64,000 nt of DNA from contig RSEE01000033.1 in assembly GCA_003971905.1 (NCBI GenBank), forward strand, positions 310,001 through 374,000, given 5' to 3'. Made by a program: the position numbers and the translations under genes. The stretch comes from Moniliella sp. 'wahieum' (taxonomy: Eukaryota). Position 1 is the first letter of the stretch; every line of letters begins with the position of its first letter. Shown here piece by piece: positions 9,482 through 62,884 of this stretch. Under the pieces are notes generated by a model that was given only the letters and a program-made list of their open reading frames with translations, made no database searches and was not told the origin of the DNA.

Positions 9482-9570
9482 CGCGTAACGCGTGCCGCGT
9501 AACGCGTAACCGGGCGTAAGCGTAACCGGGCGTAAGCGTAACCGGGCGTAAGCGTAACTGGGTAACCGGA
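9482..9570. repeat. Tandem repeat, 16-bp unit CGTAACCGGGCGTAAG x~3 plus CGCGTAA units
   Basis: Directly visible in the intergenic sequence. Confidence 0.9.
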
Positions 9571-10295
9571 ACCATCACATGTTCAGCGTTCCACGGCACG
9601 TCACGTTCATGCTAAGCGCAACCAAGACAAGGACAGAGCAAGGAGGCGCCCAGTGACGCGGATGGTTTCAACTAGTGCGGACCGAACCGGACCGGATCCA
9701 TCACTTTTGTATACCTTCTGTCTGTCGCTGCATCTGCGGAACAATTTGGCTTGAGAGCTGAAAGGTTCAGCGCCAGTGTAGTCGAGGCCGACGCGTGCCG
9801 GCGGAGGCACGGGGCATCTGCCCACCCACTGCCCATCGATCGGCGTGTCCTTCTGGATGACTCATGTCACATGATGCTTGAAGCTTGACAAATGATGGTC
9901 ACATGCAGTGCCGCCCCTTAACCCCCCCGCCGCGCTCGGCCACTGTCGCCCCCTGGCAGCGCACTAGCGCGGTGCTGGTATAAGACAGCCCTGCCCCCCA
10001 CCACCCGCCGCAGCAGGCCGCTGCAGGCGATAGGTCCCGTTTTCGCCACTGCCCCCGCGCGCCCGAGGGTGGCCGAAGCCCGAGCCGCTCTGTAGCAGCC
10101 AGCGCTTCTTACTCACATCACCGATATATACACTTTCCTCCGTTCTCTCACTCCGGCCCTCTCGTATCTACCCGCCTCCTCAAAGAAAGAGAGACCTCTC
10201 TTTCCACCGCCAGTCTGTCTCTCTCCAGCCTCTCTTGCCTCTCTTGCCTCTCTTCTCCCTCTCTCAGTCGCCCTTCCCTCGATCTGCACACCTCG

Positions 10296-13174: not shown

Positions 13175-14227
13175 GGAGGGCAGTGGAGGGAGCCGGGAAA
13201 TGGGGGGGCGGCACGGTTCGTTTAACCACAGCTGCACTGCTTAAACGTTGAGGGTAAAGTGGTAACGCCGAGCGTGCTCAGTCTCAGTACTCAAGTTCAG
13301 TTGAACCGATGCTGTGCTCTGTGGACGCCAAAGTGAAATTGAACGGGCCACAAGCAGGGGGTCAGCTCGATCAGCCGCTTAGTCGTGGGGTCAACTGGCT
13401 AGGTAAATGTTTATTGCCCCTGTAACGCCAGCGCGGATCGACTATTGAAGAGATAGGGAACGCCGCGTTGGTGGGGGGAGGGGGGGAGGGGGGGGGTGGC
13501 AACGATGGAAAGGGGGGGGGCGGAGACGCTCATGTGTTTGCTGGTCGCCCCAAAAGGCCAGCCATGTTCCCCTGATTGCCGCGTCTGTGGGGCCTGCCAT
13601 GTGCGACAGGAGACCCAGTGCATCAGTCCCAACCGCCACAAGCGGCAGTGGCACGTGCACACCGCCTCTCGATTTGTTTGGGGGGAGCAACTTTGCATGA
13701 TTTTCGTTGATCTACTCCCGGCCCTTCCTTAGCCCCCACGTCCCACGGCAGACTCACAAAAGCCTCATGTACAACGGGTGGCGTGTGCCGCATAATACAC
13801 AATCAGTGTCAGCACTGGCAGAACTGTCAGGCGCCAGGCAGGACACTTCGACGAGGCGCTATCCTGGTTGCCCCATCTCAAGCATCACTGGCGTGCCAGC
13901 CATTCTTGGACCAACGTTGGAGCCAGTCGTTCTTTGAACTCACAGTAGTGGGACAGGAAGCAATCTCAGCAACCGCATGGACGACGCGCGCACACGTTGC
14001 ACTCATCGCCGGGGGCAGAAGTGGCTCTATGACCTAGAACTTTGGGGTGGCCGGCATTACTGCCGGGCGTGCTCGATATGAATGTTCGATTAGCAGGTTC
14101 CAACTGGAAAGCCAATTGAATGGTCGTGCGAATAGAGAGGCAAAGACATGAAAAAGTACAGGTGAGTGTTGAGCACTATTAGGGCAAGGAGAAGGCCGCC
14201 CTGTTTTGATGAGAGGACTGCTAGGCC

Positions 14228-15397: not shown

Positions 15398-16723
15398 GGT
15401 GGAAGAAGGGGCAGAGAAAGAGGGAAGAGGCAAGGCGGGTGGGGGAGGTGGGAGACAAGCGGTAGGGCGGGGGACAGGAGCGCGAGGTTTTATACCAGCG
15501 CTGTTTTTGGTGGTGCCGCAGCGCAGATGATTCAAATGGGGGTTTCATTCTTCCTGCCGCGATAAGATGGGCGGGCGTGGCATGGGCCAGCGGCATGGAA
15601 TGTCTGACGCGCCGAGCGACGGAAGGCAGAGGAAGCCTACCGCGACGACTGAGCGCGCTCTGGCTGTCCTGGGCCTCAGGCCGGCGGGATGATCGATGAC
15701 GCCCAGCACGGCGTCCTCTCCCTGCAGCAGCCTAGTCTGCGGCACGCCAGCAGAGCGTGGAGCTCGCCAGCAGCATCCGCTGGCTGCCCGCTGCCCACCA
15801 TCCAGGCACCGCCGGCAAGCGTCAGCCGCTGTCCTCTGCAAGGGGAAGAGACAGTGCTCAAATTTCAAACCCAGCCAGCGGCCAGCACCGCGGCTGTCAC
15901 TTGGCCCAGTCACTAGTCACGAGCAGCTGCACAGCAGGGAAATTAAGGAGGCAAGCCTTGTGCCCGCCGCCGGCTGACTTGGATGCGGCCAGCACGACGG
16001 CCAGCCTCCGCCACACAGCCTGGATTTGAGCAGGCCGCTGTGACATGTGACATGTGACATGTGACATGGCAGCACTGAGCCTGCCGCAGCCATGTGTGTT
16101 AGGTGCGTGTCACCGGCGTATGTCACGTGCCGCATGCCACATATCAATATTCAATGTCCAATGCCACCACGTCATCTGCATGGTATCGATTAGGGAGATC
16201 ATCGATCATCGACGGTGCGTCGACATGGATCGAGCATCATCGATCCTGCAGCAGCCCTCGCCGACCGAGATCCTCGGTTCTCAAGACTTCGGTCTGTGGC
16301 TGGCGTCACGCGCGTCTACGAGATCTCGGTTGCCATTGGCCAGCTGCTTGAACGCGCGACCGAAGACCAGCGACTTGGTCCTGGGCCGTGCGGGAGGTGT
16401 TGGAGGGCATGAGCAGCTGCATGAGCGGAACGCAAGGCGGGGGGGGGGGGCAGGAACTCCGAGCACGGAGGTAGGGTTGAGCTTTGCGCTCTGTCTGCGG
16501 AAGGAGAGTGGGCGGAGGGCCAGGCCGGCGAGTAGGATCGACACGCGGGCCGCGGCAGTGGCTGGGGGGGGATGGGGCACCTGGCACCTGGCAACTGTGG
16601 AGCCCAAGCCATATGCAGGGTCTTTGAATGTAAGCCTGGCGCTGAGTGGGGGGCAGGGCCGGCAGGGCAGGGCAGGGCAGAGCAGCGGGGCGGTCGTCCT
16701 GCCGCCACACCAGTTGCGCGGCC

Positions 16724-19406: not shown

Positions 19407-19861
19407 TGTGGCTGGGTGAATGTCGCTCTCGGTTCCACCGCACATGGTTACCTGGCAACTTGGCCTCTGCCCGTCCATTGGTGCAGTGCCCAAAATCCTT
19501 TCGCTCTTTCTTCTCCTTGCCCAGACCTTTTGGCCATTGTTTTCTCTCGCAGCCATGGCATGATACCTGTTCTCTGATATACCTGTCTGGCGCCACTGGG
19601 GCCGTGGCCATCCATACCAGGAGCGCAGCTACGTTCCTTGACTGAATCTTTTCACTACTACAGGATAGTTTGGGCGCATACCAACTTGCAAGCATGTATG
19701 TCCCGCGGCCGAGGCCGGTCGCTAGGCTGAGTACCGAGTACTGAGTCTGTCGAGATAGGCTGGGAGACAGCGCAAAGCAAAACCCAACGTTGTCCCTCCC
19801 ACCACGTATCGCATCTTAAGCTGCCATCGTGGCGTAGCAGGACGTGTGTTCTCAACCAAGC

Positions 19862-20627: not shown

Positions 20628-21345
20628 TTAGGCCGAGACGACAGCCTTCTGGGCGGCAGCGTTGCGGCGGATGGCAAGTTGGCGCTTGTTAAGGCGAGGG
20701 GCAGCAACCTCAACCGTCTTGGGAACAGCAGAGCCCTGCTCAACGAGGTGAATCTCAACGTGGCAGGGCGAACCCTTGTAGGGGTTGATGCGGCCGTGGG
20801 CACGGTAGGTGCGGCGGTAAGTGTGCGGGGCACGGTGGATGACAATGTGCTTGATCAGCAGGTTCTCCACCTCAAGGCCCTTCTGGTCGGCGTTCGACTC
20901 AGCGTTCTTGAGGAGAGCCACGAGGAACTTGGCGCTCTTGGTGGGCCAACGGCCCTGAGTCACCGAGCCCCACTGCTTGGCCTGCGCGGTCCGGCCAACG
21001 TGCTTGTTGTGCCGGCGGAAAGGAACGCACTGCTTCTTCTCCTGCACGTCGGCCAGGAACGCGTACGCCTTGGACAGCTTCATGCCCTGGATAGTGGCCG
21101 CAGTCTCGCGCGTGTTCTTGTAGTGTACACGCAGGTAGTCCCCACGGCTCTTGGCGCTCTTCTCGGCCAGGTCCGAGTCACGGATAGCGTATTGCTACAC
21201 AAGCGTCAGTAAGAAGACCAGTGGCAGAACTCGATGCAGGGCCCACGATGGGCGAGGCGGTAGCTGCGCAGAAATGCATCGCGCAGCATGCCAGCCTTGC
21301 CGCATTGCAGTAGCCGCGGGAGGAGGGGCGCATACGCACAACCAT
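20628..21345 (-). CDS. RPL17: 60S ribosomal protein L17 (uL22); 6-nt first exon; intron 21195-21339
   Basis: [45 protein letters not shown]. Confidence 0.96.
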
Positions 21346-21652
21346 TGCTACAGGGAGTCTTGGCGGGGACGGTTAGGTGGGCGACAGAGCCGATGAATCG
21401 ATAAGGTGGCATTGGGAGAGGGCTGGCAGCGCAAAAGTAGGGTTTTCTCGTAACCCTAAGAGAATCAGGGTAAATTGCTATTAATGACACTGGCCCTGTG
21501 CAGGCGCTCGGGCGCAATCATGCGGGCGAAGTGGTGTAGTGCCCAATCGTAGCATACTTCCCTTCCGCTGCCTCCGTCCAGCTCAGTGAGGGTCGAGCCA
21601 GGCTAGCGACCGCATTAACACCGAGGAACTCCACCACACCAACTTAGACAAA
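21346..21652. promoter_or_regulatory. Bidirectional RPL17/RPL25 promoter with telobox-like TAGGGTTT / AACCCTAA sites
   Basis: Head-to-head ribosomal protein genes about 300 bp apart; TAGGGTTT (~21437) and AACCCTAA (~21452) in inverted arrangement. Confidence 0.6.
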
Positions 21653-23131: not shown

Positions 23132-24232
23132 ATGACATCCAAAATGGACGATGAAATGCGTGACATTCTTGTCACGGAGTTCGTTCCCATGGCCCAGGAT
23201 GCGTTTTCCAAGACGGGGCATCGGGAGCTATGGGGGGTTGACTTTCCCAGCGACCCAGCAGGATGGACCAACGTGCACCGCTCCGTGCTCAACAAGTTTA
23301 TCTCGGCCAAGCCCACGCTGGACGAAGCCGCAACGCAGTTGACCAACACTCTCACCTGGCGCAAAGAGTTTCGTCCTTTGGACGCTGCCTACCACGAGAC
23401 GCACTCCGACATGTTTTCGCCTCTCGGCCTCATCACGCTCACACCGAAGGCAGGGTCGTGTCCTGGAATCTGTACGGTGCCATTAAAGATCCTTCTGGCA
23501 CGGTCTTCTCCGACTTGGATGCGTTTATTCGTTGGAGAGTGGGTCTGATGGAGCGGGGCATTGCTCAGCTCGACTTTGCCAACCCGGAGTGCGACACGAT
23601 GGATCAAGTGCATGATTATTATGGGGTCAGCTTTCTGCGCATGAATCCCGAAGCACGCAAGGGCTCCCAGAAGGTTGTTCAACTGTTCCAGGACTATTAC
23701 CCGGAATTGTTGCGAGCCAAGTACTTTGTCAATGTGCCTGTCTTCATGATGTGGGTCTTCCGCTTTGTCCGCATGACCATGGACGCCAAAACCGCGGCCA
23801 AGTTCCATGTGGTGCACAATGGCCATGATTTGGCGGCCCAGCTGGGCACCTGGACCCCGTCAGCGTATGGGGGGCAGGGCAAAGACCTTCAAGAGCAGGC
23901 TATCAAGGATCAAGCTTCTCCTCAGCCCAGACCCCGGCCCCTCGTGCGAGTGCGAGTGCAGGTCCGAGTGCGAGCGCGGGTGCGGGTGCGGGTGCGGGTG
24001 CGGGTGCGGGTGCGGGTGCGGGCGCGGGTGCGGGTGCGGGTCCGAGTGCGAGTGCGAGTGCGGATGCGAGGGCGAGTCCGAGTCCGAGTGCGGGTGCGGG
24101 TGCGAGTGCGACTCCGTCGGCAGATGCATTGCCCCCTCGGCGAATGAGCAGGCGAGCGCGGCGGTTGAGACTTCTGAGCAGCACGATGGTACTGCTGCCG
24201 CTGTTGACGAGGACCAACCGGCCACATCGTGA
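23132..24232 (+). CDS. SFH5: Sec14/CRAL-TRIO phosphatidylinositol transfer protein Sfh5-like, with low-complexity repeat tail
   Basis: ELWGV, TLTWRKEF, VSWNLYGA, FIRWRVGLMERGI, QVHDY.GVSFLR, FQDYYPELLRAKYFVNVP. Confidence 0.88.
23944..24112 (+). repeat. Hexamer tandem repeat (GCGGGT/GCGAGT)n within the SFH5 3' coding region
   Basis: About 27 six-base units visible. Confidence 0.95.
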
Positions 24233-24503
24233 GGCGCTGTTGCTCGCCCCGCACCGCAGTTACTTGACTGTATACCCTCCCATCCTCTGGAATTTGATCG
24301 ATGATCGATGGCTTGGGTTGAATCATCTGATTCCGATTATCCTTTGACGACGATTGTCGGCCTCGGTTAGTTTTTAAGTGCAACGTAACGCGTAGCGCGC
24401 AACCCGTAATTACCCGTGTTCGACTGTGATGCATGTGATCCTTCAGGCCATTGACTATTATTTTGTGAGGATGTATACTTTCGTCGGAGCAACGCTAGAA
24501 CAA

Positions 24504-24600
24504 GGAGTAGTGACGCAGCGGTTAGCGTGTGAGATTGCAATTTGTTACCTTAGTAACAGTTTCCATCTTGAAGTCGTTGGTTCAAGTCCGACCTACTCCT
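24504..24600 (+). tRNA. tRNA-Cys(GCA) with intron
   Basis: Acceptor GGAGTAG/CTACTCC, D-arm TGACGCAGCGGTTAGCGT, TTGCAA anticodon loop, GGTTCAAGTCC, downstream T-run. Confidence 0.8.
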
Positions 24601-25143
24601 TGCTTTTTTTCTTCCAACTTTAATTACTCCGCCGTCGGTGCGAGGTTTGCGTCCTCCCTTGGGATTCGGGTCGCTCTGAACCTGAGGGTGACAGGGGTGA
24701 GTCGGATTGAAGCGAGGGAAACGTGAAACCAAGGTCCAGAAATGGGGTGCATGGCAAGATCGTCCGGGCAGGAATCAAGAGGACCAAGGCGACAAGAGCA
24801 GAAGGGAAACCGAGAAGAAGAATTGAGATACACGGATGATTGGAAATTGGAGCGAGCTCGGGTCTGTGACCGAACGACTAAGTCTCTCCAATTTCCAATT
24901 CTGCATCCTGTGTCTCGCTCTTTCCTTTCCTTTTGCTTCTGTTCTCTGCCCGATGCCTTCTGTTTCCTCCCAAGAACGGTCTTCCCTTTCCCCCCGCATT
25001 TGACATGTGACATGGCGACAGGATCTTGGTCTCCCTCGTTTAGCCCCGACTGTTCCATGTAACTTTGTCATTAATCATCCGGGCACAGGGTAATCCCGGT
25101 CAGTCGGTGCGAAAATAGGCACTGATGCTACTTGCCTAAGTTG

Positions 25144-26009: not shown

Positions 26010-26493
26010 AGTTGCGTCCATATCATTGACAGAGCTTAAGGCTGGGACAGGGGAAATGTAAAGCCAGTCTACTCTTCCCATTTGAGCTTGAACGCTGTGA
26101 CATGTGAGCGCGGCTGAGCGCGGGCTGAGCGCTGAGCCTCAGCCTCCTTCCTCTCATCACTAGCACTAGTCACTTCCGTATCCCGTGCCTATTCGCCCAC
26201 GGGGAAACAATGACTACATTGGTTGGCCTACGCTTCATTCCATTGCGGTCCCTCTCGAACGCAGGGGACAGAAGGTCGCTATGCTGCACAAAGGTTATCC
26301 ACTGCACGAACTGTAGTGCCCCCCCCCTTGTTGAGCCGCCTGTCGAGGACGTCCATTATCCTGGTACAGTTTGCTCCTTGCGAATCCTATGCAAGAGGCC
26401 GGACATGGGATGGGGGAACGAGCTGAGGTGACAGGACCGGCGATCGATGCGAAGGGGGCAGTGCTCCCCCCCCCCGCCCCGATGAACTCAGGA

Positions 26494-29400
26494 TTACGAC
26501 TCATCAGGAGCAGGATGTGTCGCCGACGTCGGAGACGGCCAAGCCAAGGGGTCGATCCGTTGGTAAAAGAGCATGTACGCCTTTGTCTTGCTCACCTCGT
26601 CCCAGGATGCCTGTCGAACGAGCTCATCCGATACATGCACCCACACCTTGTCCCCACCTTGCCGGGGCGAATGGAGAACAAAGGCAGTGTAGTGGCCCGA
26701 GGCCAGTAGGCCCGTGTGCACAATCACTGCCACCAAGTCATACTGAGTCGGTTGGTCCAGGTCGGGCGCCGGGGCGTCGGTGGTGGGCTGCTTCGAACGA
26801 CCGTACCGGTCGTAGCACTGGCGCGGCGGAGCGAGCCACGGTGCGATATCCAGCACGGGTGGGAACGAGACAAACTCATCTACTTTTTCACCTTGTTTTG
26901 CACCCGCCGCACTTCCCAACGTCAGCGCACCCCCCAAGCCCGAGAGGGATGTGACGGCAAACCGTTTGAGCTGCACGACGAGCAGAGGCGGTGCCGAGGC
27001 AATTAGGTACCGTTTCAGTGCCGGCTGACGAATCCTTCCAGTACGACGAACGGGCTTAGGAGGTCGAAGCACTGTGGCTCGACAGCGTCGCCACATCCCG
27101 CTCGGACGGGTGCGTGACGGCCACCGTAGTGGGCACACTTCCCTCCGAGGGAGGTGCGACAACCGCTGGCTCCCAGAGGCACACCAAAGCCAGATGCATC
27201 CGATGTCCATCCCTCGCCTTCCCTTGCGACCGAGCCAGTGCGAGAGCGCATGATGGGTGCAGACGTGTCACTGTCCCCTAAGCTGGCAGCGCTAGAACGG
27301 GCGTGGAGCGCAGGCACCGACATGGACGCTCGACTCGAGGAAGGAGTCATCATCTGCCAGGTGCCATTCGGAGGCACACCGTGCCGCCCTGAGCTGGGCC
27401 GAAGGTTATCGTCGTCCGAGTCGGCGTCCGGCGAGGAATCTGAGCCTGGCTCCGTTGGGAGCGAAGGGGAGCGAGCCCGTAGGCCATGCTGGATTCGCCA
27501 GCACCGCTTGCACAAAAACGCATCTTCCCCTTCGAGTAGCTCGGATTGAGTAAACGTGTTGAGGGCAGCCACCAAGCCAGTCCCCTCTTGGGCGCGCAGC
27601 GCACTGCCATCCTCTCCATTCGGCAATGCACTACCCTCGGATGACAACGAAACGGGTTGGGCAAGCGAGAGGGAGGTACCCGTCTGCGCCGCGGACGCAC
27701 AGGCCGCAGCTACATCCACCACGCTCAGCTTCCCTCGCCGTGTGGACGCAGCATCCCGGAGAGCATAGAGCACAGACGGATCCACTGCCTTCCGTGGTGA
27801 ACCCGACAGCAGTTGAGCAATGTAGAGCAAATGAGGCGGTACGCCTTCTAGCTGGCCCGATTGCGAATCGGACACGGTCAAGGCCATCGGCACCGACGGA
27901 TCGAGGGGCCAGGAGGTCGAACGGTGCGGCGAAAAGGGCGATGGAGCTTGTGCGAGTGATGGCCGTGTCGCGCACCGAGACCAGAATGTCCAAAGTGCGA
28001 CTGTCGCCGATCCTTCTGTTCCTCCACCGCTCGCACCCCAGCGGCATCCGAGGCATGCGAGGCAACCGTGGCGGCCTCCAATTTGTCCACCAAGTCCGGC
28101 GTGATGGTGTCTTCCCTCTTGACGTCCGGAGGCACCAATGTGTCTTGGCGATCGACCTCGGGACGGCCAGGGCCAGGAGACTCTGGAAGAGCTTGTGGGA
28201 AATAGGCGCCAAGGGGGCTCGGCTGCGGTGGTAAGGCCGCTTGTACGCCGTTGGGACTCTCTTGCGGGGAGGAGACAGCGTATTCGTCATCGTCCAAACT
28301 CTCGGACCCGTTGGTCATGGACGTAAAGTCTAGTCCGTTTGTGTGCCGGGCCACAGGCGCATGAGCAGGCGCGCTAGCCTGCGGAACCACGAGGAAAGGG
28401 GGAACAGGCTCGGCGCCCTTCTTGACCTTGCGAATCATAGTCCGACGACGACGAAAAAGTTGCCACGAGACTCCTCCTCTTCCGGGCTAGGATCCGGTTT
28501 GGGCGTACGTGAGAAGAAGCGCCTCCGCTCTTTGCCCACCGGACCCTCAGTGGGACCAGTAGATTGCGGACGAGGAGTAGTCGGTGGGACTTATCTGTCG
28601 TGCGAGATGCAGCACGGGAAGGAGTCAGGGTCACAGACGCATGGATCGGACCCATGTCGGCACCTCCTTTTGATGACGCGATGGGATTGGGTGTGGTTGC
28701 CGTCGGACGGGACCAAAGTTTCCTGGATTGTCCTTGGCAAGCAAGAGCGTCGTCCGGGGCTGCGCTGCTGGGGCGGGAAAGGGATTCAGCGGTCCGCTGT
28801 ACCGCCTTGGCCATAGAGGAAGAGAAGGAAGTACCAGCTGCCGCGGACATGTCGCCCACTCCCTCGTCCGCAACACCCAGCATCGTACCTGGAGTGCCAG
28901 GGCGAGAACGGCCGCCGGTGCGACTGGACCAGCGTTCAGAAAGCCTCAAGAATGCCAAACGTTTTTTGCTCTGAGCAATAGGTGCGCCCGGCGTGGCAGG
29001 CTGGGGGAGGGAGAGCGAAAGGTCGTAGAAAGGTTCATATGTCTGGCTCACATAGCCACATGCTTGGCAGATAATGGTCGAGGCCAACTTTCCTTCAAAT
29101 ACTTGTTCAACCAGGGTTCGAGAGACGCAGCATGGTCAATGCCACCAACCGAGGCGACTGAACCGGTCACAGACCCAGGCGGGATAGGTGTGGCTGTTGC
29201 CACGGGAGTGGATGGTGCCTTGGGTTGGGATGCAGGGAAAGCAACAGAAATATTGTTTTGCGTCGGAGTCAAGGGTTCCACGGCTGCGTCGGATGGTGAG
29301 GGAAGCAAATCTCCGGGCATGGGGACAGAGGTGGGCGACAAGAGATGAGAATAAGGGTTATTGGCTGCGAGTGCAGCCTGGGGGTCCAAGTCGGCTGGAG

Positions 29401-30169
29401 GACTGAGACCCATAGGAAAACTGGTCTGTCGCCGGGGAGACCGAGATGCGGAATGGATTTGAGGGTTTTGAGGGATGGACGTTGGGATAGAGGTAGAGGG
29501 AACACCCCCCGGGGCTGGGGGCTTGGCGTCTGTCCCGTGCCATGTCGTCTGTACAGGAGGCAAACCATGGAGCGGGGCGGGGGTGACGGGAGGCAACTGG
29601 CTGTCATCCGAAGCGTGCGGGGCAGGGGAGGAGGTCGCAGACGGCTCTGATGTAGAGATGGAGGGGTCAAACTGGCCCTGCGCCCAGACACTTGCAAGCT
29701 GGCCTTGATGACGTCTTTCTCCTCCATCTGGCAGCAATCGGCAACAGCGAGAGAGCCTCGTGTGCGTCCTGCTGCTCGCCCGTGACCAAATCGGGAAACC
29801 GTTTCTTGAGCGCAGCCAGCAGGGACTTGGGATCCACAACATGCACAGCAGCTTGGCTGCCGGAGGGCGGGTGTGCGCGGTGGAAGCAGGTGTGGTCCCA
29901 CATGTCAGCAAGCAGTTGGAGCAGGGTGGAGGTCAGCGGCATGGCGATGGCGGACGATGGCGATGGGCCTGTGGCTTGGCTGAGGAGGGGGCAGGGCGGT
30001 GCGCATGGAGGGCAATGACGGCGGGACTGGTAGAGGGGGGGTGGTGGGATGCGCAGGTTGAATGGCCGAGCGCAGAGGTTGGGCGGCAGCCAGGGACTGG
30101 AGGACGACATTGAGGAAGCAAGAGTTGCCGACATTGGGCACCGGAATGTGTCCGTTGGATGTCGTCCAT
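26494..30169 (-). CDS. Ubiquitin-specific protease (peptidase C19) with long low-complexity insertions; frameshifts
   Basis: Cys box PNVGNSCFLNVVLQSL, QQDAHE, STIICQACG..YEPFYDLSL, LEGEDAFLCKRC, VVQLKRF, His box VHTG..SGHYTAFV..AYMLFYQR. Confidence 0.9.
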
Positions 30170-31046
30170 GGCAGGAGGAGCTGGGGGGAGGAGCAAGGGG
30201 GGCGACGGGGCCAGGGCCGTCGCGAAGGCAGGGCCAAGGGTAGGACGGCACGCTTGGAAGAGCAGGTGGTGGGGTGGTGGTGGTGGTGGTGGTGGTGGTG
30301 GTGGTGGTGGTGGGGAGTGGGGATGGGGGGCGTGATGCTTGACGCTTGACGAACTTGCAGCTTGCAGGCTGCGTTGCTGTGATGGTCACCGACCAGGAAA
30401 TGAGACTCACCGGTGGGGAGGGGGGGCTGGATCGATCGGCGAGCACAGCAAGGAGCGAGCGCATGCAGGCGACCCATCAGATCCATCCGGCTGGTACTCG
30501 ACCGCATGCAGCGCATCCGCCCTGGGCGCTCGGGTGCTCCGTCGGCCGTCGCAGCACGCGCCCATCGCAATCGACCCTCGGGCCCTTTAATCTAACGCCG
30601 CGCAGCCCACATGCTGCACCTCACTTGCACCGACCCCAGCCCACCACCACGTGGCGTTCACACATTAAACCCAGCCCATCGCTCCCATTCCGGCTGCATC
30701 CAGCATCCCGCCCCGCATCACGTGATGCATTGCCCCAGCATGCCACCGAAAAGAGTGAAGCCTTGCAACTTGAAACTTGCACATTGAACATTGAACGATC
30801 ATCGATCACTAGTGAACGTTGAACGTTGAACAGGGCACGCTGCATGCGTCGCACCGCACCGCACATCTCGAGCGCAGCGCTCCAGCTGGCTGCTGCACTC
30901 TCCCCCAGTGCCGCCTTGTGCCCTCTGGTGCCCGCCCCCCGCCTGCACGTGCCAGGCTTGCGCGCCCACCAGCCACGCCTCGCTCCAGCCTCACCCACAC
31001 CCACACCCAGCCTTCTCCTCGACCTCTCCCCAGCCCCTCCTCCCCC

Positions 31047-32040
31047 ATGTCCGCCACCGCCACCGTCGACGTCAGCAATCTGGCGCCTGGCACCACCGAG
31101 CACGCGCTCCAGGACTTCTTCTCCTTCTGCGGCTCCATCGACCATGTCCAGCTTGCTCCCTCCGGCACCAGGCCAAGGTAACCTTCGCCTCCCCCTCCGC
31201 CGCGAGCAACGCAGCCATGTATGTGCCCCCTCTCCACGCCTCCTGTCCTCCTCGCTCTAACTCCCGCCTACGCTGCCCTCTCTCCCAGGCTCAATGGTGG
31301 CACCCTCAACGACGCCACCATCGCCGTCACCCTTGAATCTTCTAGCCCTGCCACAGCGCCTGCGCCTGCTGTTGCTTCTTCCACCTCCGAGGGGGCGGCG
31401 CACCAGGAGGACAAGCCCAAGACGGCCATTGTCGCCGAGTACCTTGCCGCTGGCTACAAGCTGTCGGATGACATTGCCAAGCGAGCGCTGGAGCTGGACC
31501 AAAAGAACGGGTACTCGTCCAAGTTCCATCAGTTCCTGGCCGGTCTGGACCGCAAGCTGGGCGAAAAAACGGCTGCCCCCGTAGCCGACAAGGGCGTCTC
31601 GACTCCAGCGAGGATGCGGCCGTCTCGAGCGAGAAGGAGGCGGTGCCGGCATCGTCAGAGCCCGCTGCCGCTCCTTCCTTTGTCGCCAATGTGCACGACA
31701 AATTCAACCAGCAACTGCAAGACCCCAACTCGCTGGTCAGCCAAGCCCAGGCTCAAGCTAACAGCTTTATGGCCCGGCCCGAGGTGAACAACCTGTGGTC
31801 AAAGCTGGGATCGTACTACAACCAAGCTGTCAACCACCCCCAAATCCATAAGTTTTACACCGACACGAGTCGCACGGTTCAAGATGTGCACCAAGAGGCC
31901 CACCGCATTGCCCAGGACAAGTATGGTTTGACTCACCGTCACCACCTCCATCAACTTTTCCAGTCGGGTTCGGAATCGGCACCAGCGCCCGCGCAAGCCC
32001 CCGCGCAAGCGCCCTCGTCTGAGCCCCAGGCCCCGGGAAA
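31047..32040 (+). CDS. Vip1-like RRM protein (intron 31219-31288); the frame runs on into Ssp120
   Basis: VDVSNLAPGTTEHALQDFFSFCGSI, QEDKPKTAIVAEYLAAGYKLSD..ALELDQKNG, KFYTDTSRTVQDVHQEAHRIA. Confidence 0.82.
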
Positions 32041-33308
32041 GGCCAGCCTCAACTGGGTTCTTGTGCTCCTGCTGGTTCTGAGCGTCTTCACCGCAGGCGC
32101 CAGCGCCCATGGCGACGAAGAGGATGCAGCGGTGATTGCAGGTGTGAAAGCGCCTGCGCCGGGCCAGGAATCATACATCCAAAAGCACATGGCCAACGAA
32201 CACCACATCAATGCGTTTGACATGGGTTCCTTTTTTACCCTCCACGATTCTCAACCGGGATGGCGTCTGGGATCGGTCCGAAGTTGAGGCCATTTATGGC
32301 GTGCACCACAGCATGTCGATCAAGCACTCTCCGACCGCCGAAGTGCACGATGAGAAGGCAGACAAGATTGTGAAAGAGGTGTGTTCAAGCGCCTCGACCT
32401 CAATGGCGACGCGATGATCACCAAGAGCGAGTTCATCAAGGGCGGTGCGGAAGCTCTGCCTACGTTTGAGGAATATGGGATCGGGGTGCTGGGCCACCAC
32501 TACGATCCCGAGTCGGAATTCTTTGTGCACCACGAGGAAAAGTACCACTCGACGCCTGACACTCAAAACCGAGGAGGCCTACAACCACCCGGAAGACATT
32601 GAGCACTTTATGAGCCATCAGAAGATCGAGGACGAGGAGGAGAACCGGGAGCGCAAGGCAGAGGGGATGCCGTCGATCGAGGATGAGGCAAAGTTGCGCG
32701 AGGAAGCTGCGGCCAAGGGAGAGACGTTTGTGTCGGAAATCAGAAGAACCTCCGTTCCGGCGATCAAGAATTTCGTGAAGTGGAGCAAGATGCGTATTAC
32801 GGTGGCTATGCCCAAGACGAGGCGGCGTCGGAGCAGCACGTTTTCCGTGGGCCCGGCGGTGCGCACGTAGTCAAGAGCCACTCGGAGAATGCGAGCCATG
32901 CCAACACCCTGGGTGAGCGCTTGGAGGGCGAGACGCAGGAAGGGTATGAGCAGCGAAGGAGCTGTACGAATCGCGACTCAAGGCGGCGGCGTACTTTGAC
33001 AAGCTGGAGAAGGAGCGAAAGCACGGATAGCCAAGGCGGCGGAGAAGAGAAGCAAGAGGCGGGCGAGACGGAGGAGGCCTTCCTGCGGCGGCTCAACAAG
33101 GCCAAGTGGGAGGCAGCGCAGCGCGAAGACTACGGCAAGGGCACCAAGGGCTTTGCGCGCCCCAAGGACGATGCGGACGGATGCGCAAGGGCGCGCCGTA
33201 CAAGGTACGTGGCTCAGCTGCGCGGCAAGGGCAGGGATGTGTGTCGACTGACGAGTGCTTGGCTGCCAGAACCGGATGAAGAAGGGCTCGTACTTTGGCG
33301 AGTTCTAA
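32041..33308 (+). CDS. Ssp120-like EF-hand secretory-pathway protein (intron 33205-33269); no own ATG before the hydrophobic leader
   Basis: HMANEHHINAFDMGSFFTLHD(L)NRDGVWDRSEVEAIYG, LDLNGDAMITKSEF, GHHYDPESEFFVHHEEKYH, YNHPEDIEHF. Confidence 0.85.
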
Positions 33309-33586
33309 GCACCCGCGAGACGATGCCCAGCAAGCGGCCGCGCCTGGATGCGCTCGGCGTGGGGCGTGTGTGCCAAGTGTTAGTTGAGCCGAGCAAAGTG
33401 CGTGACAGATGTCTATTTGCCTCATCCGCAGTGTGCCAGCGCTCAGCGCTCAGCGCCCCGCAGCCGCCCCACAGACGCTTGCATGCGCCCCCTTGTTATA
33501 GCCCGTAGCTCCCCAGACGCACCGCAGCGGGGCATGCAGCCTCCCCCTCCCGCTCCGCTTCCCGCCCCACCATCCCCCCCTCGGCC

Positions 33587-38836: not shown

Positions 38837-40022
38837 AAGAGTACCCTGGTGCCCTGTTCGTTGCCTCGCTTTCTCCCCTACATACGCGTACTGGATGCTT
38901 TCATCTTTCTCTGTATACTGCCCATGCTTCAGCACAGGGACTTGCTGGGGCCCTGCTTGGCCGGGGCCTAGCCCCCCCGCCCCCAGCTGCGTTTGGGCCC
39001 GGCGTACCTTGTCGCTCTTCTCGCTCTCCTTGCCCGGGCCCTCCCAACATGTACATGTCACCTTGAACGAACCATTGTCTGCTGCCGTGTGTTGGCAGGG
39101 CGGAGCCAGTGGCATGCACACCCACCCCATGGCAAAGAAGATGGCTCTACGGGCACGTCTCGGGCATCCTGCGTGGTAGGTGGCAGGTAGACAGCGTAGG
39201 TCGTGGGAAATGGATGCTGCGTTCAAGACCCCATTGGCATGTTTCGAGTCTGCTGCGCGACATGCACGCATCCGCCGGCTAGGCCATCGAGGGGCAGAGG
39301 GGCGGAGGTGGGTTGAGGCCGTTCAAGCTTCAAGTTGAACGTGTTGAGGCTCGACCTGCGCAACCACCGCTAGTGGCGCTAATGGCATGTCTGGTCGGGG
39401 TGCGTGGTGCTGTTTTGCTTACGAGTGTACGATGTGAAATTTGCAATTTGCCATTTGAGCCGGGGCGCTGACAAGCGAGGTAGCCGGTACGCCCGGTATC
39501 GGGCAACCAGTAGCGCGTGAGCGTGACGCGTGAAATTTCAAAGAACATCCAGCATTTGAAATTTCGCATGACATGGTGACATGTGACATGCCGTCTCGAT
39601 CTGGGGAGACTGGAAGCGTACATCACGTGCCCGGGGGAGGCCAGCCTTCATTCTCCCTGCACAGCGCCTGTGCGGGGATTACGCAATGTTGAATTAGGGT
39701 TGTGAGGTGGGCCCCAGCAAAGGGCCAGTGTGGGCTCCTGTGAGTTTTAGCGTTTGCTGGTCTGTGGGCATGCGAACGCAAACCAATCGGGCAGCGACCA
39801 GTGAGCGGCGAAGGGCACGCGTGATGGGCCCAGCCGGCTGGCCATCTGCCTCGCCGCCGCAGCCACAGTCAGAGAGAACGGCGGGACGGTCTTTGCCAGC
39901 TTTCGCCACCATCGCCGCTGACGCTGACGGCGCCCGTGTCCACCGCGCCCCCTGCTCGTGTCCCGTCGCCACCTCTCCCGGTCCCACACCACCACCCCCT
40001 CCGCCCCACTGCACCGTGCAGC

Positions 40023-42824: not shown

Positions 42825-43570
42825 GGGCAAAAGTCTCTTTGACGTGTTGCCTCCCTGGATCCCTCACTCTAGTTTCTCCATTACCATCTTCTCATGAGGG
42901 GTTGTTTTCTTTTCATGTCCTGCAATGACCCCTTTCACGCCACTCTTCCCAGCTCATTGCCCCTGACCACCGTTTCCTTTACTCCCTAACCCGTGCCTCT
43001 TATCCTGTTCTACTCTTTGTGCACTACACTGCCCTGTAGATGCATGTTCATCCGTGGCCGTATCTTCCTCACCCCCCCAGTTTACTCCGCCTCCCCTTAA
43101 AAGGTGGGCGGAGAGACGGGGGTCACGCCTGTCACCGTTGTACATAATGCAGTAGCGGCCCAAGTTTGTATCTTGTGTGAGTACTGAGTTGATCTGCGCT
43201 GTTCCACACATTGCCTCGCCTACCGTTGGTTGCCTCCAGGTTGCTGCTGCGTGTCGGGGTTGGCGTTCTCTTACTTGAAGGGGATTGTAGACGGACATAT
43301 TGGTGCGGGATGTCCCCCCTCGCCCTCCCTCTCGCTGGCACCAAACGACGCGGCGATAGCGACGATAACTGCTCTTCTCGAGATCCCTGCGCAGATCCCC
43401 ACCATCGAAGGGGAGTGTATATGTAACCCACTCACGAAGAGAGGCTCTGTAGGGTGCAGCATGATACCGCTGAGCAGGGCGGGGAGGGTATCGAGGTCAT
43501 CTTCTCGTTGTTGCATGCCAAACATGTCAAAGACGCTTGACCGCCGAGGAGAAATGACAAAAACAAAAAA

Positions 43571-43666
43571 TGACTTCGCCCGGGCTCGAACCGGGGACCT
43601 TATCCGTTATCAAGCGCACTGTGCGTTTGTTAAGGATACGTGATAAACCAACTACACCACGATGCC
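43571..43666 (-). tRNA. tRNA-Val(AAC) with intron
   Basis: GGCATCGTGGTGTAGTTGGTTTATCACGTATCCTTAACA..GGATAAGGTCCCCGGTTCGAGCCCGGGCGAAGTCA followed by a T-run. Confidence 0.92.
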
Positions 43667-44689
43667 ATATGCTCACTACAGTCGTTTCTTTTCTCAGCAG
43701 CATATATCCTCGCCCTGAGCTTCTTTGTGTCGGTGCTCCTTCTGTTTTCGGGTCCTGCTATGCAAAAGTGCCGCGGGAGATACACTCCTAGTACTCGAAT
43801 TAAAGCTTGAAGCAGCAGTGGGTGCCACCGTCCCGCCGAGGGGATACGAGAAAGACTCTTCCGTTTTTGCTGTTGAATCCGCACAGGAGATACGCAAGGG
43901 GGACACGAGGCTGCACCCCTGCCGATCGATGCACAGGCCGGATGGACCACAGAGGCTGCCGTGAGATCTGAGAGGGGGAGAGTCAACAACGGTAGAAGGT
44001 TGAAACTGCTGTACTTGGTGGTGTGACGGACGCATTCCCCGCTATTGAAGGAGGAACAAGCAGCAGGAGGGTCTTAATGCGAGAAAAGACGAGGCCGATG
44101 CTCACTACTATTACACTGTGGTACTGTACGCGGGCTTAGTAGACTTGAGCATGGTCAGCCAAAGAGAGAGGGAGCAGGAGATGGCGGCCCGTCGGAGCAC
44201 CCCAGGGCCAAAGGAGGACCGCGGCGGATATATATCGTTCGAGCCGAACTTGGCCACTGACATGTGACAGCGATATGCAGTGTATGCCATCTATATACTC
44301 TTCCCTGACTTGCTCCAACTCCATACAATACAGACAATGTGAGCATCGTCACCGCAATCTGAACTAGCTTCAAGACATCCAAGTGCACACCCAACAATCG
44401 TGGCAACGCTCAACGTCCAACATGGGAGGCTACTCTCATTTGCATATGAGATGTATACGCAAAATGCCTTAGTACTTAGTGCATTATCCTTCCTCTCTTC
44501 TGCTCCACGACCATCGCCCTGTCTGTCCCTCCGCCAGCTTCTCCCTGAACATATGGGCCGCTATAGCTGGCCCAATGGCAGCTGGCCCACACCGCCAAGT
44601 TCAAGACCCAAAAACCAAACGTATCACCAGCCCACTCGGTCAAGCTCTGACCTTGTTCTGCTGGGCATGGATTCAGCCATTGACACATA

Positions 44690-46056: not shown

Positions 46057-46456
46057 GGTGGTCGAGTGGGGCTTGTGGATGGTGGTGGTCAGAACAAGAG
46101 GCGCGGTTAAGAGTGTGGATTGGGGATGCAATGTTGGGAGGAGGTGCGGCCGCAGCAAGAGTGAATGAGGTGTCCTGGTAGCCCGAGCCCGTCCGGACCG
46201 GTAGACTGGTAGGCCGGTTAGACGCAAAAACCGACAGCAATTGCAATGTTCAACAACAAGTCCAATGTTGAAAATGAAATGATCACCTTCGAAAGTGACG
46301 CATGACGCATGTGAAGCTTGCAGCTTGAATGATGTGCATCACAGCTCGGAAGAAAGCACCGCCGATGCTCGCAGGCCGCACAACGACCGTCAGTTTGGCC
46401 GATATCCCCCGTGCTGCGATCCGAAGACATCGTCGTGGTTTTGAGCAGCACTACGA

Positions 46457-52605: not shown

Positions 52606-54415
52606 GTGAAAAGCATGCGGGTGGATATCAGGCATGCCCACATGCCAACGAACTAAACGGCGCATTTCGGTGGTTCAGAACAAAAGGGTAGGTGTAGAAT
52701 GGTGGGAGTGATGATGAAGGAAAGATCAACAGAGGCAGCGGGCGCATGCGAGATCTAACGTGCAGGTTTGGTGCCAACCGTGGAAAGCCGGTGGCCGCCG
52801 AGCTTATTACAAAACTCAGCTGTGTTGTAGTGCTCCCCCCCAGCAAAAGGGCGCACTTATACCACCGCAGTGTTGCATTATATAGTAGACGCTGTGGGTA
52901 TATATGCTTGAGGGGTATATTCTTCTGTTGCAGGGTTCGTGATCTTCAAGGCGTTCAAGCTGATCTAGTACGTACGTATATACTAGTTACTCTGGCAGAT
53001 GTTTATATTTGTAGGGCCTTTTTGAAGGCAATCTCAAAAAAATACAACACACTGTAAAGGGAAACTAATCAGTAAATAGATAGCTTTCTAAGCAAGTTAT
53101 ACTTCTGTTAGGAACCACACTGTACCATATATAGACCCAAGTGTATGAGCCATGCTGAAGGCAGATAGGAGGCAGAAGACACTTGTGATGACTGGCTATT
53201 TCCCCATACAAAACGTCACGATCAAAGAAAACTCCACACAGAAAAGATGTAGTAGACGTGGTTTCCATTATACTAGACAGAGAAACGTGTGTGTGTGCAT
53301 CAGTGGGTACTGAGGAAACCCCTTTTAATGATGAGTCTCATTGCGGAGGAAGGCAGCCATATCTCGCTCACATATATATGTTTAGCACTAACGCCCATTC
53401 ATTTATCCAAAATCGCCCTTGGCGACCTCTCTCCGGTTTGGAAGCGAGAGAGAATGGCAGGGGTGCCAGAGAGGTTCCCCGACCCGTATGGATCAATGGA
53501 TGAATCAACGACCAATGAATCTATGGATGATTCAACGACGAGATGCCGCGATGGTCCTTCTGCACACATGCATGAACGTTCAGTTGGATAGCTTGAAGCT
53601 TCAACTTCAACTTGAAGCTAGAAGTTGGAAGGTTCGTTGGGACGAGAAACATGACAATGACATGTGCATGACGCAAGCGAAACGCGAAGTCTGAAATGGA
53701 AGACGATGCATGATGCATGATGCATGACGCAGATGCGGATATCTCAGGCGAGGCTCTGGCTGAGGCTGAGGCCTGAGGCCACTGTTCTGACAAGGAGACA
53801 GTCTCGCTAAGCGCTAATCGATAATCGCTAATCGATAAGATCGAAGAGCCGCCACTGACATCACCAATCACCGGTCAATGATTGACACCAGACCTCTCGC
53901 CTCCTGTCTGCTGGGCACTGAGGCTCAGTGCTCTGTCATGTCACATGTCACTCACACGCAGGCTCACCCGGTGGGATCTGGGAGCGCAGAATGCGGAAGC
54001 AGGCCGAAGCGCACGTGGTCTGTGCTGGGCCACACTTGGACCGCACTCGCCACTCCCTTGCCCGCCCAGGCAGCCTGGCACTGCCGCCGCCTTGCCCCCC
54101 AGTGCGCCCCCCCCGGCATGCGTCCCGCGTCATGCGCTTCACGCGTCACGCTTCACACTGCCGGCGTTTCTTGTCTCAATCGTTTGCTTCAGCGCTTCAG
54201 CTTCAAAGGGTCACCGGTCAGGCTCAGGCCCCGGTCCCTGAGTCGTTCGTTGCTGTGTTGCCTTCAGCTTCCGACAAAAGCCGCGCAAAGTCACCAGGAC
54301 GTCACTAGCTCACTCGACCATAGTCACACGATCTTGGTCCACGCTGGGCCCTTCAGCTCCGTCCTGCCTCTATCCGTGCCCACCACCTCCTCCACCCATC
54401 CCCGCCGTCGCTACC

Positions 54416-55967: not shown

Positions 55968-56670
55968 ATATGTTTTGCGCTGCACATGCCGAATCAATAC
56001 TGCCCACTAACGATTTCAGTGATTGGCGTATTTCAGGCGCAAGATGTAGGCAGGGATCAAGCTGATCAAGGGAATGTCGCTGCATGGTGACGCATATCAG
56101 TCGTAGTGCCTCCTCCACTATGTCCTTGGGAAAAATCTGCATGAGTCCAGGCTGGTGGTGCCGCTGCCATGTCAGCTCATCGCACTATGACTCCACTGGT
56201 CTTTCTCCAAAGTGGGTGCGCAAGAATAGATTGAGTGCCAATCAGATCCAGAGATACGGTTCCGTGCGACATTCAGCCATAAGACCAAAGTAAACGGCTG
56301 TCGTTGGGTGACATAGCTCATGCCCGCAATATGCAAGTCAAGTCTGGACTTGATATATGATTTGGGTTTCACAACGTACGTCTCTACCTGCCCTCGGCCT
56401 CACCCTCCTGTTTGTTTCATTTGCGAACGCAGAATGTCCTACTTGCTCAAGCTAGCTAGAGTAGCTGCTGGGCACTTGGGGCTCATCATCAGGTTCTGAA
56501 CTGCTCTAGAAAGGAGCAAAGTACCATTGGCTGAAATCGTTGTGCAAACCATGAGCTAGTGGGGGTACGAGTACAAGGGAGAGGTCCAGGCAACGGCCCA
56601 GCCTACTTGACAAATGTACATGGGGGGATTGTGCCACCTCTCAATGCAGGGTTGTGTCGAGCTGTGTAAT

Positions 56671-59310: not shown

Positions 59311-59984
59311 GGACTGCGTCCACGTCGATGTCACTTGCGATGCGAGTAGATGGATAAAGATGCCCATATGTCAAACCCGGCAAATATCCAGCACCTAGCG
59401 CTCGCAGCTGAGGAAGGCTTGAGGCTCTCAGCGCTCTCAGCCCGGCTTAGCAGTGGCTGCGCTGCTTGGGTGGCTGAGGTTATGTGACAGGACCACGTGA
59501 CCTGCACCGCTGTCCCCCGTTGATGCGATTGAACGTTTGAACGTTGAATCCGGAGACATAGATGACGTAGTCGCGTGGGGGCAACTAGGTGCTGCATGAT
59601 GCATGATGATGCCGATGATGCCTCATCATATTGGTGGCTGTTCCTAATGGATCGCACCCCTGTTGCTATGGGGCACAATGAATCTTTTTTCAGGGGCGCG
59701 GGCTAGGGCCTAATGAGGGGTAACAGATTCTGATGGGCTTTGGATCGGGCGTGGGGGAGCCTAGCAATGGTCCATCTTCGCCTGTTGTTCGCCGTGTAAT
59801 GCAAAATGAATATCCGCAAATTGGAGCACGGCGGCGTGGAATAAATCAGTGTTTCACTGTGCGTCGCGGCGGCTGAGCCGCTCAGCCTTGGGCAGGTCAA
59901 GAGGATCTAAGCGAACGATCCACGCAACCCTTCAACCACCACCTTCTCCGGCGCCTGAGCTACATCTCTGCCCCTGCACACACA

Positions 59985-60943: not shown

Positions 60944-61787
60944 GGACCCGCCCTTTCTCAATCGGGCCCTCGTCTACACCGCATCTGTGTACTTTCTCTT
61001 GAGACATTCGCCTCTCCTTTCTTAAAGGCCTTGTCCAAAAGTTGAGTTACATGGACAAGACCAATGGGACTCGCAGCATCAGAGATCACACAAGGGGGTT
61101 ATTGATCATAGTTGGTCTTCTCGGACGAAGCCGGGCAAGGTAGTTAAACGGAAACTGTTTAAGCAAGATGCCCAAGGACGCTGTGATGGTTAAACTGTGG
61201 CCCTCGAGATAAATAGCTTGAATTCATGGTTGTCTAGAAGCCAGACGGCGAATGATTTTTAGTGACACGAATTGAATGCACGCGCCTTGCCCCCTGCCAT
61301 CCTCCGTCCCGCGTCCCAGCTCACCACAGACTCTGCTTGCCCACCGTGCCATGCCCCGCCATGCTCCGTTCTGGGTCATCTATGCTCATCTGGCCTTGCA
61401 CGCACGGGCCGCCGCGGCTATTCCATCTACAAGGCTCTACCTGCTACAGCCGCTAGTTACTAGTTCTAGTTGCTAGTTACCGGTTACCGGTTACCGGTTA
61501 CCGCCCTGCCCCAACCCTACGCTGCATCAGTGTTCGGTAGGGTTGCGTTCTCGCATAAGCGGTAAGCCCTTGGTAAGCCCTTGCAGCACGGCGTCGGCCT
61601 AGAAAATTTGCAGGCAATAGTGGAGGCAAACAAGGCCCACAGACAGATGTTATTTCAGTGAGTTCCTCAGCCGATAAAAGGCGGATGCGTGTTGCGTCGT
61701 TCCAAATTTCCCACCACCACCATCTTGGGCAAGTGCCCCCACGTCCTACATCCAAGTTTTATTTGTAAGTTCCTGCTCATTTGCCTT

Positions 61788-62345: not shown

Positions 62346-62884
62346 GATTTCCCAGCCTGCCCCGATGTCGCGTCTACCGAATAGTGTAGCGTTCTGACTG
62401 ACCTTCATGCCGCGCAGATTGGGCTTCTCAACCTCCACTCGTTCACTGACCTAGGGCGCCACTCTAGTAAGTTTCTTCTCTATGATTACGGTACTGATCC
62501 ATCGCCCACTGCATCTAGTGCTTTCCAACATATGCTTGCCTGTGTGACTTGAGATAATTGCTCAACATGAAATAGCTTGTATCCAAGCCTTCTCCACCCC
62601 ATAGAGCCGACATCGGATGGCATGACGAGGATCCCCAGCGCACGCGAACCGAAAATCTGCGCGTGCGTGTGTACAAAAGCGAATGCGTTGAAGCAAGGTC
62701 TCTGTCACACCCAAGTCACACTAATCACTAGCGGCTTAAAGCTTAAAGCTAGCCAGTTGGGGCGTCTGACGTAATACATTTGGCAGTCTCGCGATGCAGG
62801 TCGCCAACTCGTGAGATCAGGGATGCGGCGGTTTTTCAGAGACGCGTTGCATCCACCACCCCTTTTGCTCTCTCGAGCAGTCCG

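Follow-up and report, generated by a model that had tools for sequence, protein, structure and literature searches.

In-phase 7-bp T-N-A heptads with palindromic cores in intergenic DNA of Moniliella sp. 'wahieum'

What kind of DNA is an array whose units keep a strict 7-bp phase while their cores change? The question is raised by a composite array at 30764..30831 in a 64,000-nt stretch of Moniliella sp. 'wahieum' (GenBank assembly GCA_003971905.1, contig RSEE01000033.1, positions 310,001 to 374,000 of the forward strand), referred to here as the window. An earlier note on this DNA had described the array as ten in-phase heptads, each a T-N-A triplet (TNA; N = any nucleotide) followed by a variable, often palindromic 4-mer. 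All site statistics given below come from this one 64-kb window, and the sequences used for comparison are unrelated control contigs.

Heptads in the window and their excess over chance

The array was re-examined by direct reading, with Tandem Repeats Finder and by a seed search, and its letters are exactly those given before. T occupies position 1 in all 10 heptads and A occupies position 3 in 8 of them; two heptads start with TGC. Of the 9 complete cores, 4 are palindromic (TCGA, CTAG, ACGT and ACGT), and the other five (AACT, AACT, ACAT, ACAT and ACGA) are near-palindromes, one step off and in duplicated pairs. Perfect seeds, in which a 4-bp palindrome is flanked by two copies of the same TNA, start at 30799 (TCA-TCGA-TCA) and at 30813 and 30820 (TGA-ACGT-TGA). 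Tandem Repeats Finder divides the array into one part with a 14-bp period and two 7-bp arrays. The divergent USP/Vip1 setting reported previously is correct: the array lies in a 455-bp gap between the open reading frame (ORF) of the UCH-domain ubiquitin-specific protease (USP) on the minus strand, with its upper end at 30591, and the ATG of the RRM gene at 31047, and both neighbours are transcribed away from it.

Perfect matches to TNA, a 4-bp palindrome and the same TNA occur 53 times in 64 kb. In 100 dinucleotide shuffles of the whole window the corresponding number was 2.48±1.48, and in 250-bp block shuffles, which keep local composition, it was 2.49±1.62 with a maximum of 8, so that the excess is about 20-fold over both whole-window and local shuffles. 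Period 7 is the commonest period in the Tandem Repeats Finder output (26 of 85 rows). Perfect period-7 arrays number 19, compared with 1.08 in 50 dinucleotide shuffles, while the neighbouring periods 4, 5 and 8, with 0, 5 and 2 arrays, show no excess. Among the 29 period-7 arrays of at least two copies, 17 contain a 6-bp palindrome, which takes the form A-NNNN-T in 16 of the 17, and 12 are without a palindrome; none of the 5 period-5, 18 period-6 or 2 period-8 arrays contains a 6-bp palindrome. In-phase chains of TNA at period 7 are also enriched, with three in a row found 23 times (6.1 expected) and four in a row 10 times (0.3 expected). Among periods 4 to 13 this chain enrichment is restricted to period 7, and its multiple, 14, is slightly raised.

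Changing either the flank or the core brought the counts down to expectation. Substituting ANT, CNG or GNC for TNA gave 2, 7 and 5 sites (2.3, 6.6 and 6.9 expected), and among all 16 X-N-Y flanks TNA alone stands out. The next two flanks reach 11 against 3.3 and 9 against 4.2, and partly represent other reading frames of TNA arrays; GNA is barely enriched (9 against 4.2). Cores of 2 bp (5 against 8.6) or 6 bp (1 against 0.7) and non-palindromic 4-mers (42 against 36) were likewise at expectation. Plain duplication of TNA is near expectation (94 against 80). Palindromes are in general not enriched in the window, the exceptions being 6-mers that start with A (244 against 172) and odd 7- and 9-mers with a T to the left of the centre.

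Each of the 16 possible 4-bp palindromes is found as a core, and their use is fairly even, from TCGA (7), ACGT (6) and CATG (6) down to single cases. The middle base of the triplet behaves differently: it is identical in the two TNAs in 53 cases, complementary in 6 and otherwise different in 2, and across 47 sites it is G in 22, C in 16, A in 6 and T in 3, that is, G or C in 38 of 47. Based on these comparisons the pattern is confirmed as real and is very strong; of the refuting outcomes named beforehand, a lack of excess 7-bp periodicity and a lack of enrichment of palindromic cores are both contradicted. At the level of the window, the previous statement that slippage of a single unit cannot explain it is also correct.

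Anatomy of the sites and a proposed templated +7 insertion

The 53 matches correspond to 47 runs at lag 7, to 46 in-phase clusters, and to 44 loci when matches no more than 14 bp apart are merged. Most runs are short. Only 13 of the 47 reach 14 bp or more by run length, and the remaining 34 span 10–13 bp, which is less than two units, so they cannot be intact 7-bp tandem duplications. In these short copies the commonest 10-base frame is TNA-core-TNA (32), and the core-centred frame is the rarest (10).

The bases immediately outside the outer TNA are related to the core. On the right, the two bases past it repeat the core's near half in 25 of the 46 clusters; on the left, they do so in 17. The chance expectation is 1 in 16. 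The match is present on both sides in 7 clusters and on neither side in 11, and the base past a non-extended side behaves as unrelated sequence. A typical site can therefore be written as a 12-mer, TNAwx·x'w'·TNAwx or its reverse complement, in which a 5-base direct repeat is split by the 2-base reverse complement of the repeat's own end. Counted on both strands, such 12-mers occur 54 times, with 0.50 expected, whereas the corresponding GNA form occurs 5 times with 0.75 expected. The same design with an inverted copy of 1, 3 or 4 bases, for a net gain of 5, 9 or 11, gave 4 against 4.97, 0 against 0 and 0 against 0. Examples at 15858..15869 (TCAAA·TT·TCAAA, right-extended), 15908..15920 (AGTCA·CT·AGTCA plus one extra base) and 15688..15699 (GATGA·TC·GATGA, left-extended) were read in context, and each is a small island within GC-rich unique sequence. 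No further conserved sequence, including C...G around TNA, was found around the 46 clusters. Judged by eye only, N showed no clear strand bias with regard to either the extended side or genes.

The 5+2+5 layout is also seen with other flanks, 33 times with about 9 expected, and these cases are partly other reading frames of TNA arrays. One non-TNA 12-mer, GACGG·CC·GACGG, is present twice, at 12060 (-) and 30539 (-).

Within arrays, cores change in steps. In the in-phase TAA heptads at 53805..53838, whose cores are GCGC, TCGA, TCGC and TCGA, GCGC and TCGA are linked through TCGC as a single-change intermediate, and at the reported array ACGT and TCGA are linked in the same way through ACGA. As single strands, the two longest arrays, (TGA-CATG) with 4.3 copies at 16039..16068 and (TTA-CCGG) with 4 copies at 61476..61503, form 5-bp stems that carry N·N mismatches and are capped by TNA triloops, at -9.1 kcal/mol (z -2.53; TGA triloop) and -8.4 kcal/mol (z -3.01), respectively.

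We put the chances at about even that the heptads were left behind by a lineage-specific insertion process, working through a hairpin or a template switch, with slippage afterwards. A substrate 5'-TNAwx-3' would gain seven bases to become TNAwx·x'w'·TNAwx, and the added piece, x'w'TNAwx, would be an odd palindrome of 2+3+2 layout, with T-N-A as the 3-base loop and a 2-bp stem around it. A growing strand ending in ...x'w'TN'A would peel back by five bases and fold on itself, copying its own w' and x' and thereby adding two bases. The closed mini-hairpin would then stack onto the duplex, and the five freed template bases would be copied a second time. The net result, reached through two template switches, would be Awx triplicated in miniature, in direct-inverted-direct order. 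Since the product is self-complementary and retains TNAwx, repeated rounds or slippage could extend it into arrays of 2 to 4.3 copies, and the 11 clusters without an extension would be 12-mers later altered in their two end bases.

Several features of the sites would follow from such an event. Because w and x are simply the bases that happened to follow TNA, cores would be interchangeable and evenly spread; the fold-back route would yield the exact product, including the identical N; and as the addition of seven bases shifts the reading frame, an insertion would survive only outside coding DNA. The relation between core and flank suggests that the palindrome was made from the flank and did not pre-exist. 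The template-switch footprint, one of two readings offered by the earlier note, is favoured by this flank-derived core (25/46 and 17/46), by the sites of less than two units, by the use of all 16 cores and by the presence of sites between convergent genes.

Among known systems, the heptads appear to behave most like direct-inverted-direct template-switch rearrangements. In one report, DUP-INV-DUP small inverted triplications have segments of ~148/160/148 bp, with a spacer of 30 bp and junctions of 6 bp; they arise by replication template switching and are tied to FEN1 and the ends of Okazaki fragments (PMC13334657). The proposed event has in common with them the direct-inverted-direct order (here Awx / x'w'T / Awx), the two template switches, and products that form hairpins and can be lost through slippage. 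The heptads differ from the published events in having a 3-bp segment, a 1-base spacer, a 1-base junction, a T-N-A anchor and a fixed size, and they are about 50-fold smaller. A second likeness is to 7-nt DNA mini-hairpins such as d(gcGCAgc), which have a GNA trinucleotide loop and are reported to be very stable (PMC3201870). The inserted x'w'TNAwx has the same 2-bp stem, 3-base loop and 2-bp stem, but its loop is T-N-A, and the published mini-hairpins are oligonucleotide structures rather than genomic insertions.

Short tandem repeats in yeast promoters, discussed under the name of 'transcriptional evolvability', are reportedly unstable and mostly AT-rich, with no fixed period and no palindrome rule. 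They resemble the heptads in being short, in lying in intergenic promoter-bearing DNA and in their likely change of copy number, and differ in that the heptads have a fixed period of 7 and a strict grammar. By concept, no description of this grammar was found in the literature, in a search that left subscription journals largely outside its coverage, and six literal array strings were absent from the literature searched.

Other routes to the pattern were tried and rejected. Quasi-palindrome correction would produce perfect 10-bp palindromes, with N complementary, and is ruled out as the main route by the rarity of such sites (6 against 53). Variable-size 'P-nucleotide' footprints of hairpin opening are ruled out because the 2-base form alone exists. 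Nor can the stability of mini-hairpins be the whole cause, since 3-bp stems never occur and GNA shows hardly any enrichment. Replication slippage of a micro- or minisatellite was set aside given that 34 of 47 runs are under two copies, that period 7 alone is in excess and that 17 of 29 units contain a 6-bp palindrome. Quasi-palindrome template switching does share with the heptads its local templated copies and folded-back 3' end, but the heptads are tied to one triplet and one size. The same likeness, and the same difference, applies to snap-back and loop-out synthesis-dependent microhomology-mediated end joining (PMC2943611).

If templated insertion is the right explanation, the heptads are a sharply defined mutational signature, consisting of seven added bases, a T-N-A anchor and a palindrome made from the flank, and this signature has visibly shaped part of one fungal lineage's intergenic DNA (~46 sites in 64 kb). 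They would then offer a natural system in which nascent-strand hairpin or template-switch insertions can be followed at base-pair resolution, and would generate new palindromic promoter sequences as well as variable repeats close to genes.

Age, distribution and competing explanations

Decayed copies are few. Over seven constraints, one-mismatch variants are mildly enriched (85 against 51), compared with an excess of ~50 perfect sites. Under neutral decay, this surplus of perfect copies implies that the sites are young or turn over rapidly.

For comparison with other genomes we used 80 metagenome loci around genes for glycerol-3-phosphate dehydrogenase (GPD), 540,865 bp in all and many of them fungal, obtained by an alignment-based scan; none is close enough to the window for orthologous intergenic comparison. 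A separate metagenome scan with the single GPD protein found no relative. The control loci hold 31 sites in 540,865 bp, or 0.057 per kb, compared with 0.83 per kb in the window, and the closest control relative (70% GPD identity) has 1 site in 20.7 kb. Judged from these contigs, the grammar is lineage-specific and not general in fungi. A single control locus hints at the grammar: L068, a metagenome contig of 20.7 kb, has 5 sites with 1.06 expected, four of them TCA, which is not significant after 29 tests.

With respect to genes, 41 of the 44 loci lie outside coding-like DNA. As an insertion of seven bases shifts the frame, this non-coding location says little on its own. The coding-like mask is rough, since codon bias is weak and codon-score maps were insensitive or noisy, with antisense frames scoring too; coding-like segments make up 46% of the window. 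Gene ends were taken from Pfam-supported ORFs, and on the resulting approximate gene map divergent gaps hold 17 loci in 5.2 kb (3.27 per kb), tandem gaps 7 in 4.4 kb (1.58 per kb) and convergent gaps 5 in 4.4 kb (1.13 per kb). Four of the 5 convergent loci fall in one 1.9-kb gap, 42825-44721, as 12–13-mers at 43178, 43962, 44258 and 44468 (region 43178..44480) between two 3' gene ends. The gap is bounded by a dynamin-like ORF on the plus strand, which ends at 42824, and by the C-terminal exon of a short-chain dehydrogenase (SDR) gene on the minus strand (44722-45084). Its ORFs matched no Pfam domain and 42800-44800 matched no Rfam RNA family; an unannotated gene is possible there. An imperfect array at 19728 lies in another convergent gap. 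No perfect site was found upstream of Ras or in two ribosomal-protein promoter regions (845-1077 and 21195-21618, serving the genes for S16, L17 and L25), and gaps neighbouring the latter hold several.

The motif is therefore intergenic and leans to promoter-bearing gaps, but does not appear to be promoter-specific. The claim that it recurs in most upstream regions is too strong, with ribosomal-protein and Ras upstream regions empty and convergent gaps populated. The lean towards promoter-bearing gaps fits a process that favours open DNA and fits function alike. Insertion may be favoured in open intergenic DNA, a link to open chromatin that we infer.

Several points weigh against templated insertion. 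The event is reconstructed from a single sequence. Selection could equally explain the rarity of decayed copies, as could hairpin-guided correction, and the climb in density with the number of promoters per gap is what function would predict as well. Of six arrays that were folded, four, the reported locus included, show no folding advantage over shuffles (z -0.1 to -1.5). Pairing alone would equally allow A-N-T, C-N-G and G-N-C, all of which are at expectation, and GNA shows hardly any enrichment, either as a flank or in 12-mers, although the most stable mini-hairpins are known to have GNA loops. Pairing also leaves the fixed 2-bp stem unexplained, as a 3-bp stem would be more stable yet is never found. 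The exactness of T-N-A and of the stem size suggests an enzyme that cuts or holds DNA at T-N-A; more broadly, a triplet this strict and a size this constant are signs of an enzyme or of an as yet undescribed structural rule.

The best surviving alternative, which we nevertheless consider unlikely, is that a TNA-specific enzyme starts the event, either a DDE transposase or a derived nuclease of the IS5/PIF-Harbinger ('PHIS') type, which is recognised by its 3-bp target duplications of TNA or TWA. The sites would then be excision footprints, composed of TNA, a leftover and TNA, or products of staggered-break repair with a fixed gain of seven bases. The strict T-N-A, the fixed 7-base size and the direct repeat of an identical TNA do look enzymatic, and a direct repeat around a short palindrome is the general form of footprints that keep the terminal bases of inverted repeats, as with Tc1 and Tc3. 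PHIS elements duplicate TWA, and the NuwaII group, with members in fungi, duplicates C|TNA|G (PMC4482050). These target duplications resemble the heptads in that a direct T-N-A repeat flanks a short inverted-repeat piece, and they differ in that the heptads have no element between the repeats, accept any of 16 cores, copy their flank and carry mostly G or C as N. The last of these, G or C in 38 of 47, is unlike TWA, and the C...G context around TNA is not conserved. Use of all 16 palindromes means that the core cannot represent the ends of a few resident elements, and a core that copies its flank is something leftover transposon ends cannot provide. Inverted-repeat elements flanked by TNA are not in excess in the window (16 against 11.6 in shuffles), no transposase domain was found by Pfam among its 150 longest ORFs, and there is a single product size, whereas footprints usually vary.

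A bolder form of the idea, for which we would likewise claim only a small probability, is that a dedicated sequence-specific system, such as a TNA-cutting or hairpin-forming enzyme and perhaps a tamed IS5/Harbinger-type transposase, writes 7-base units into open intergenic DNA. If so, it would provide a steady supply of palindromic hexamers, A-NNNN-T being the form of many transcription-factor sites, and of promoter arrays of variable copy number. It would amount to an endogenous promoter-diversifying mutator, whose arrays might then be read by factors.

Somewhat less probable again is a working promoter code, kept by selection, whose reader would be a general regulatory or chromatin factor or else a hairpin- or cruciform-recognising protein. 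Such a code would account for the gradient of density from convergent through tandem to divergent gaps, for the several sites within ~300 bp of start codons, for the large excess of perfect over decayed copies, and for changes within arrays that pass from palindrome to palindrome by a one-step intermediate. With all 16 cores in use, however, T.A would be the only constant for a sequence-reading protein, and for a dimer one would expect a symmetric site instead of an identical N on each side. Most sites are single 10–13-mers and not arrays; sites are found between convergent genes; none lie in the ribosomal-protein promoter regions or upstream of Ras; and sampled relatives lack the grammar. The flank-derived core, moreover, indicates a mutational origin. 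Of the two readings offered before, the template-switch footprint fits the anatomy, and the cooperatively bound array of a general factor is without support, as there is no conserved core and no apparent confinement to promoters, although the density in divergent gaps keeps it alive as a minority view.

Ordinary microsatellites, chance or base composition can hardly be credited and are already refuted: runs of at least 14 bp do resemble normal short tandem repeats, but the 20-fold excess holds whether the whole window or local blocks are shuffled, periods 4, 5 and 8 are not in excess, only 12 of 29 period-7 arrays lack a palindrome, and none of the specificity controls reproduces the signal. 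What probability remains falls to an explanation of a kind not considered here.

Further sites and neighbouring features

Sites listed before as further instances of the grammar were mostly perfect: this holds for 3555, 9500, 9879, 13284, 16041-16055, 16144, 16199, 24295, 33443, 53711, 53808, 59538, 61477 and 62737. Those at 19728, 39435 and 61457 have the grammar with one mismatch each. At 46296 an array is present, but its unit is TGACGCA and the core is non-palindromic.

In the left part of the window, a (TAA-CGCG) array of 2.1 copies at 9496..9510 adjoins an array with a 16-bp period, GCGTAAGCGTAACCGG, at 9497-9562 (4.1 copies, 96% matches), which directly continues the TAA-CGCG heptads. 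It has the look of a higher-order unit in which TAA-bearing pieces of 6 and 10 bases are combined. TGA-AGCT-TGA at 9876..9888 is extended by 3 bases on its left side, and TCA-GTAC-TCA at 13283..13293 lies just upstream of an oxysterol-binding-protein ORF on the minus strand. TCAAT·AT·TCAAT at 16144..16155 and a (TCA-TCGA) array of 2.3 copies at 16197..16212 follow the long TGA-CATG array described above. Two-copy arrays of (TGA-CATG) and (TGA-GCGC) are at 25001..25014 and at 26124..26137, the latter lying past the USP gene's 3' end.

To the right of the reported array, a (TCA-GCGC) array of 2.9 copies lies at 33437..33456, and three loci (39322-39334, 39521-39533 and 39576-39590) lie between the 3' end of the Ras gene and the 5' end of the dynamin-like gene. 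A cluster of heptads includes (TGA-TGCA) with 3.3 copies at 53705..53727, (TGA-GGCC) with 2.1 copies at 53766..53780, the TAA heptads described above, and (TCA-CATG) with 2.1 copies at 53937..53951. Beside this cluster, at 53570-53620, are perfect 10-bp palindromes with complementary N (TGAACGTTCA and TGAAGCTTCA) and a 6-bp array of CTTCAA with 2.5 copies, which may be related products of the same process. TGA-TATA-TGA at 56351..56361 lies between the 3' ends of a Mem_trans gene (plus) and a NAC gene (minus). The remaining arrays are (TGA-TGCA) with 2.3 copies at 59593..59608 and (TAA-AGCT) with 2.4 copies at 62734..62750.

The window is eukaryotic, with a GC content of ~57%, and is a gene-dense fungal stretch whose ORFs match RTA1, Rax2, ubiquitin-specific protease, GPD, ribosomal proteins and others in Pfam. 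The nearest named relatives of two of its proteins, GPD and RPL17, are Ustilaginomycotina. For GPD the identities are 73% with Violaceomyces, 72% with Thecaphora and 70% with Malassezia, and for RPL17 the best named relative is Tilletiaria (69%); no close named relative turned up for GPD, RPL17 or the Sec14-like protein.

A tRNA found by Rfam at 24504-24600 (+), with 97 bases and 48.2 bits, probably contains an intron, given its unusual length. It is the single tRNA found in the window by Rfam; ARAGORN reported zero tRNA genes over the same sequence. Heptad arrays sit 100–200 bp upstream of it, including (TGA-TCGA) with 2.3 copies at 24295..24310, about 200 bp from the gene. A GTGCGG hexamer array at 23944-24110 (167 bp, 27.8 copies, 85% matches) is located at the 3' end of the CRAL/TRIO (Sec14-like) ORF; its frames give Cys-Gly, Ala-Gly or Arg-Thr runs, and it is possibly coding.

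The right neighbour of the reported array is the gene for a Vip1-like RRM protein at 31047..32284 on the plus strand, in which Pfam RRM_1 (E 4.7e-6) covers the first 44 residues from the ATG at 31047. The left neighbour, the USP gene, occupies 26497..30591 on the minus strand, with a Pfam UCH match at 26497-27267 (E 7.5e-21). Its N-terminal part has a weak UCH match at 29908-30591 (E 1.8e-4), under the cut-off, and contains (GGT)16.7 at 30265-30313, which on the minus strand encodes a run of 13 threonines.

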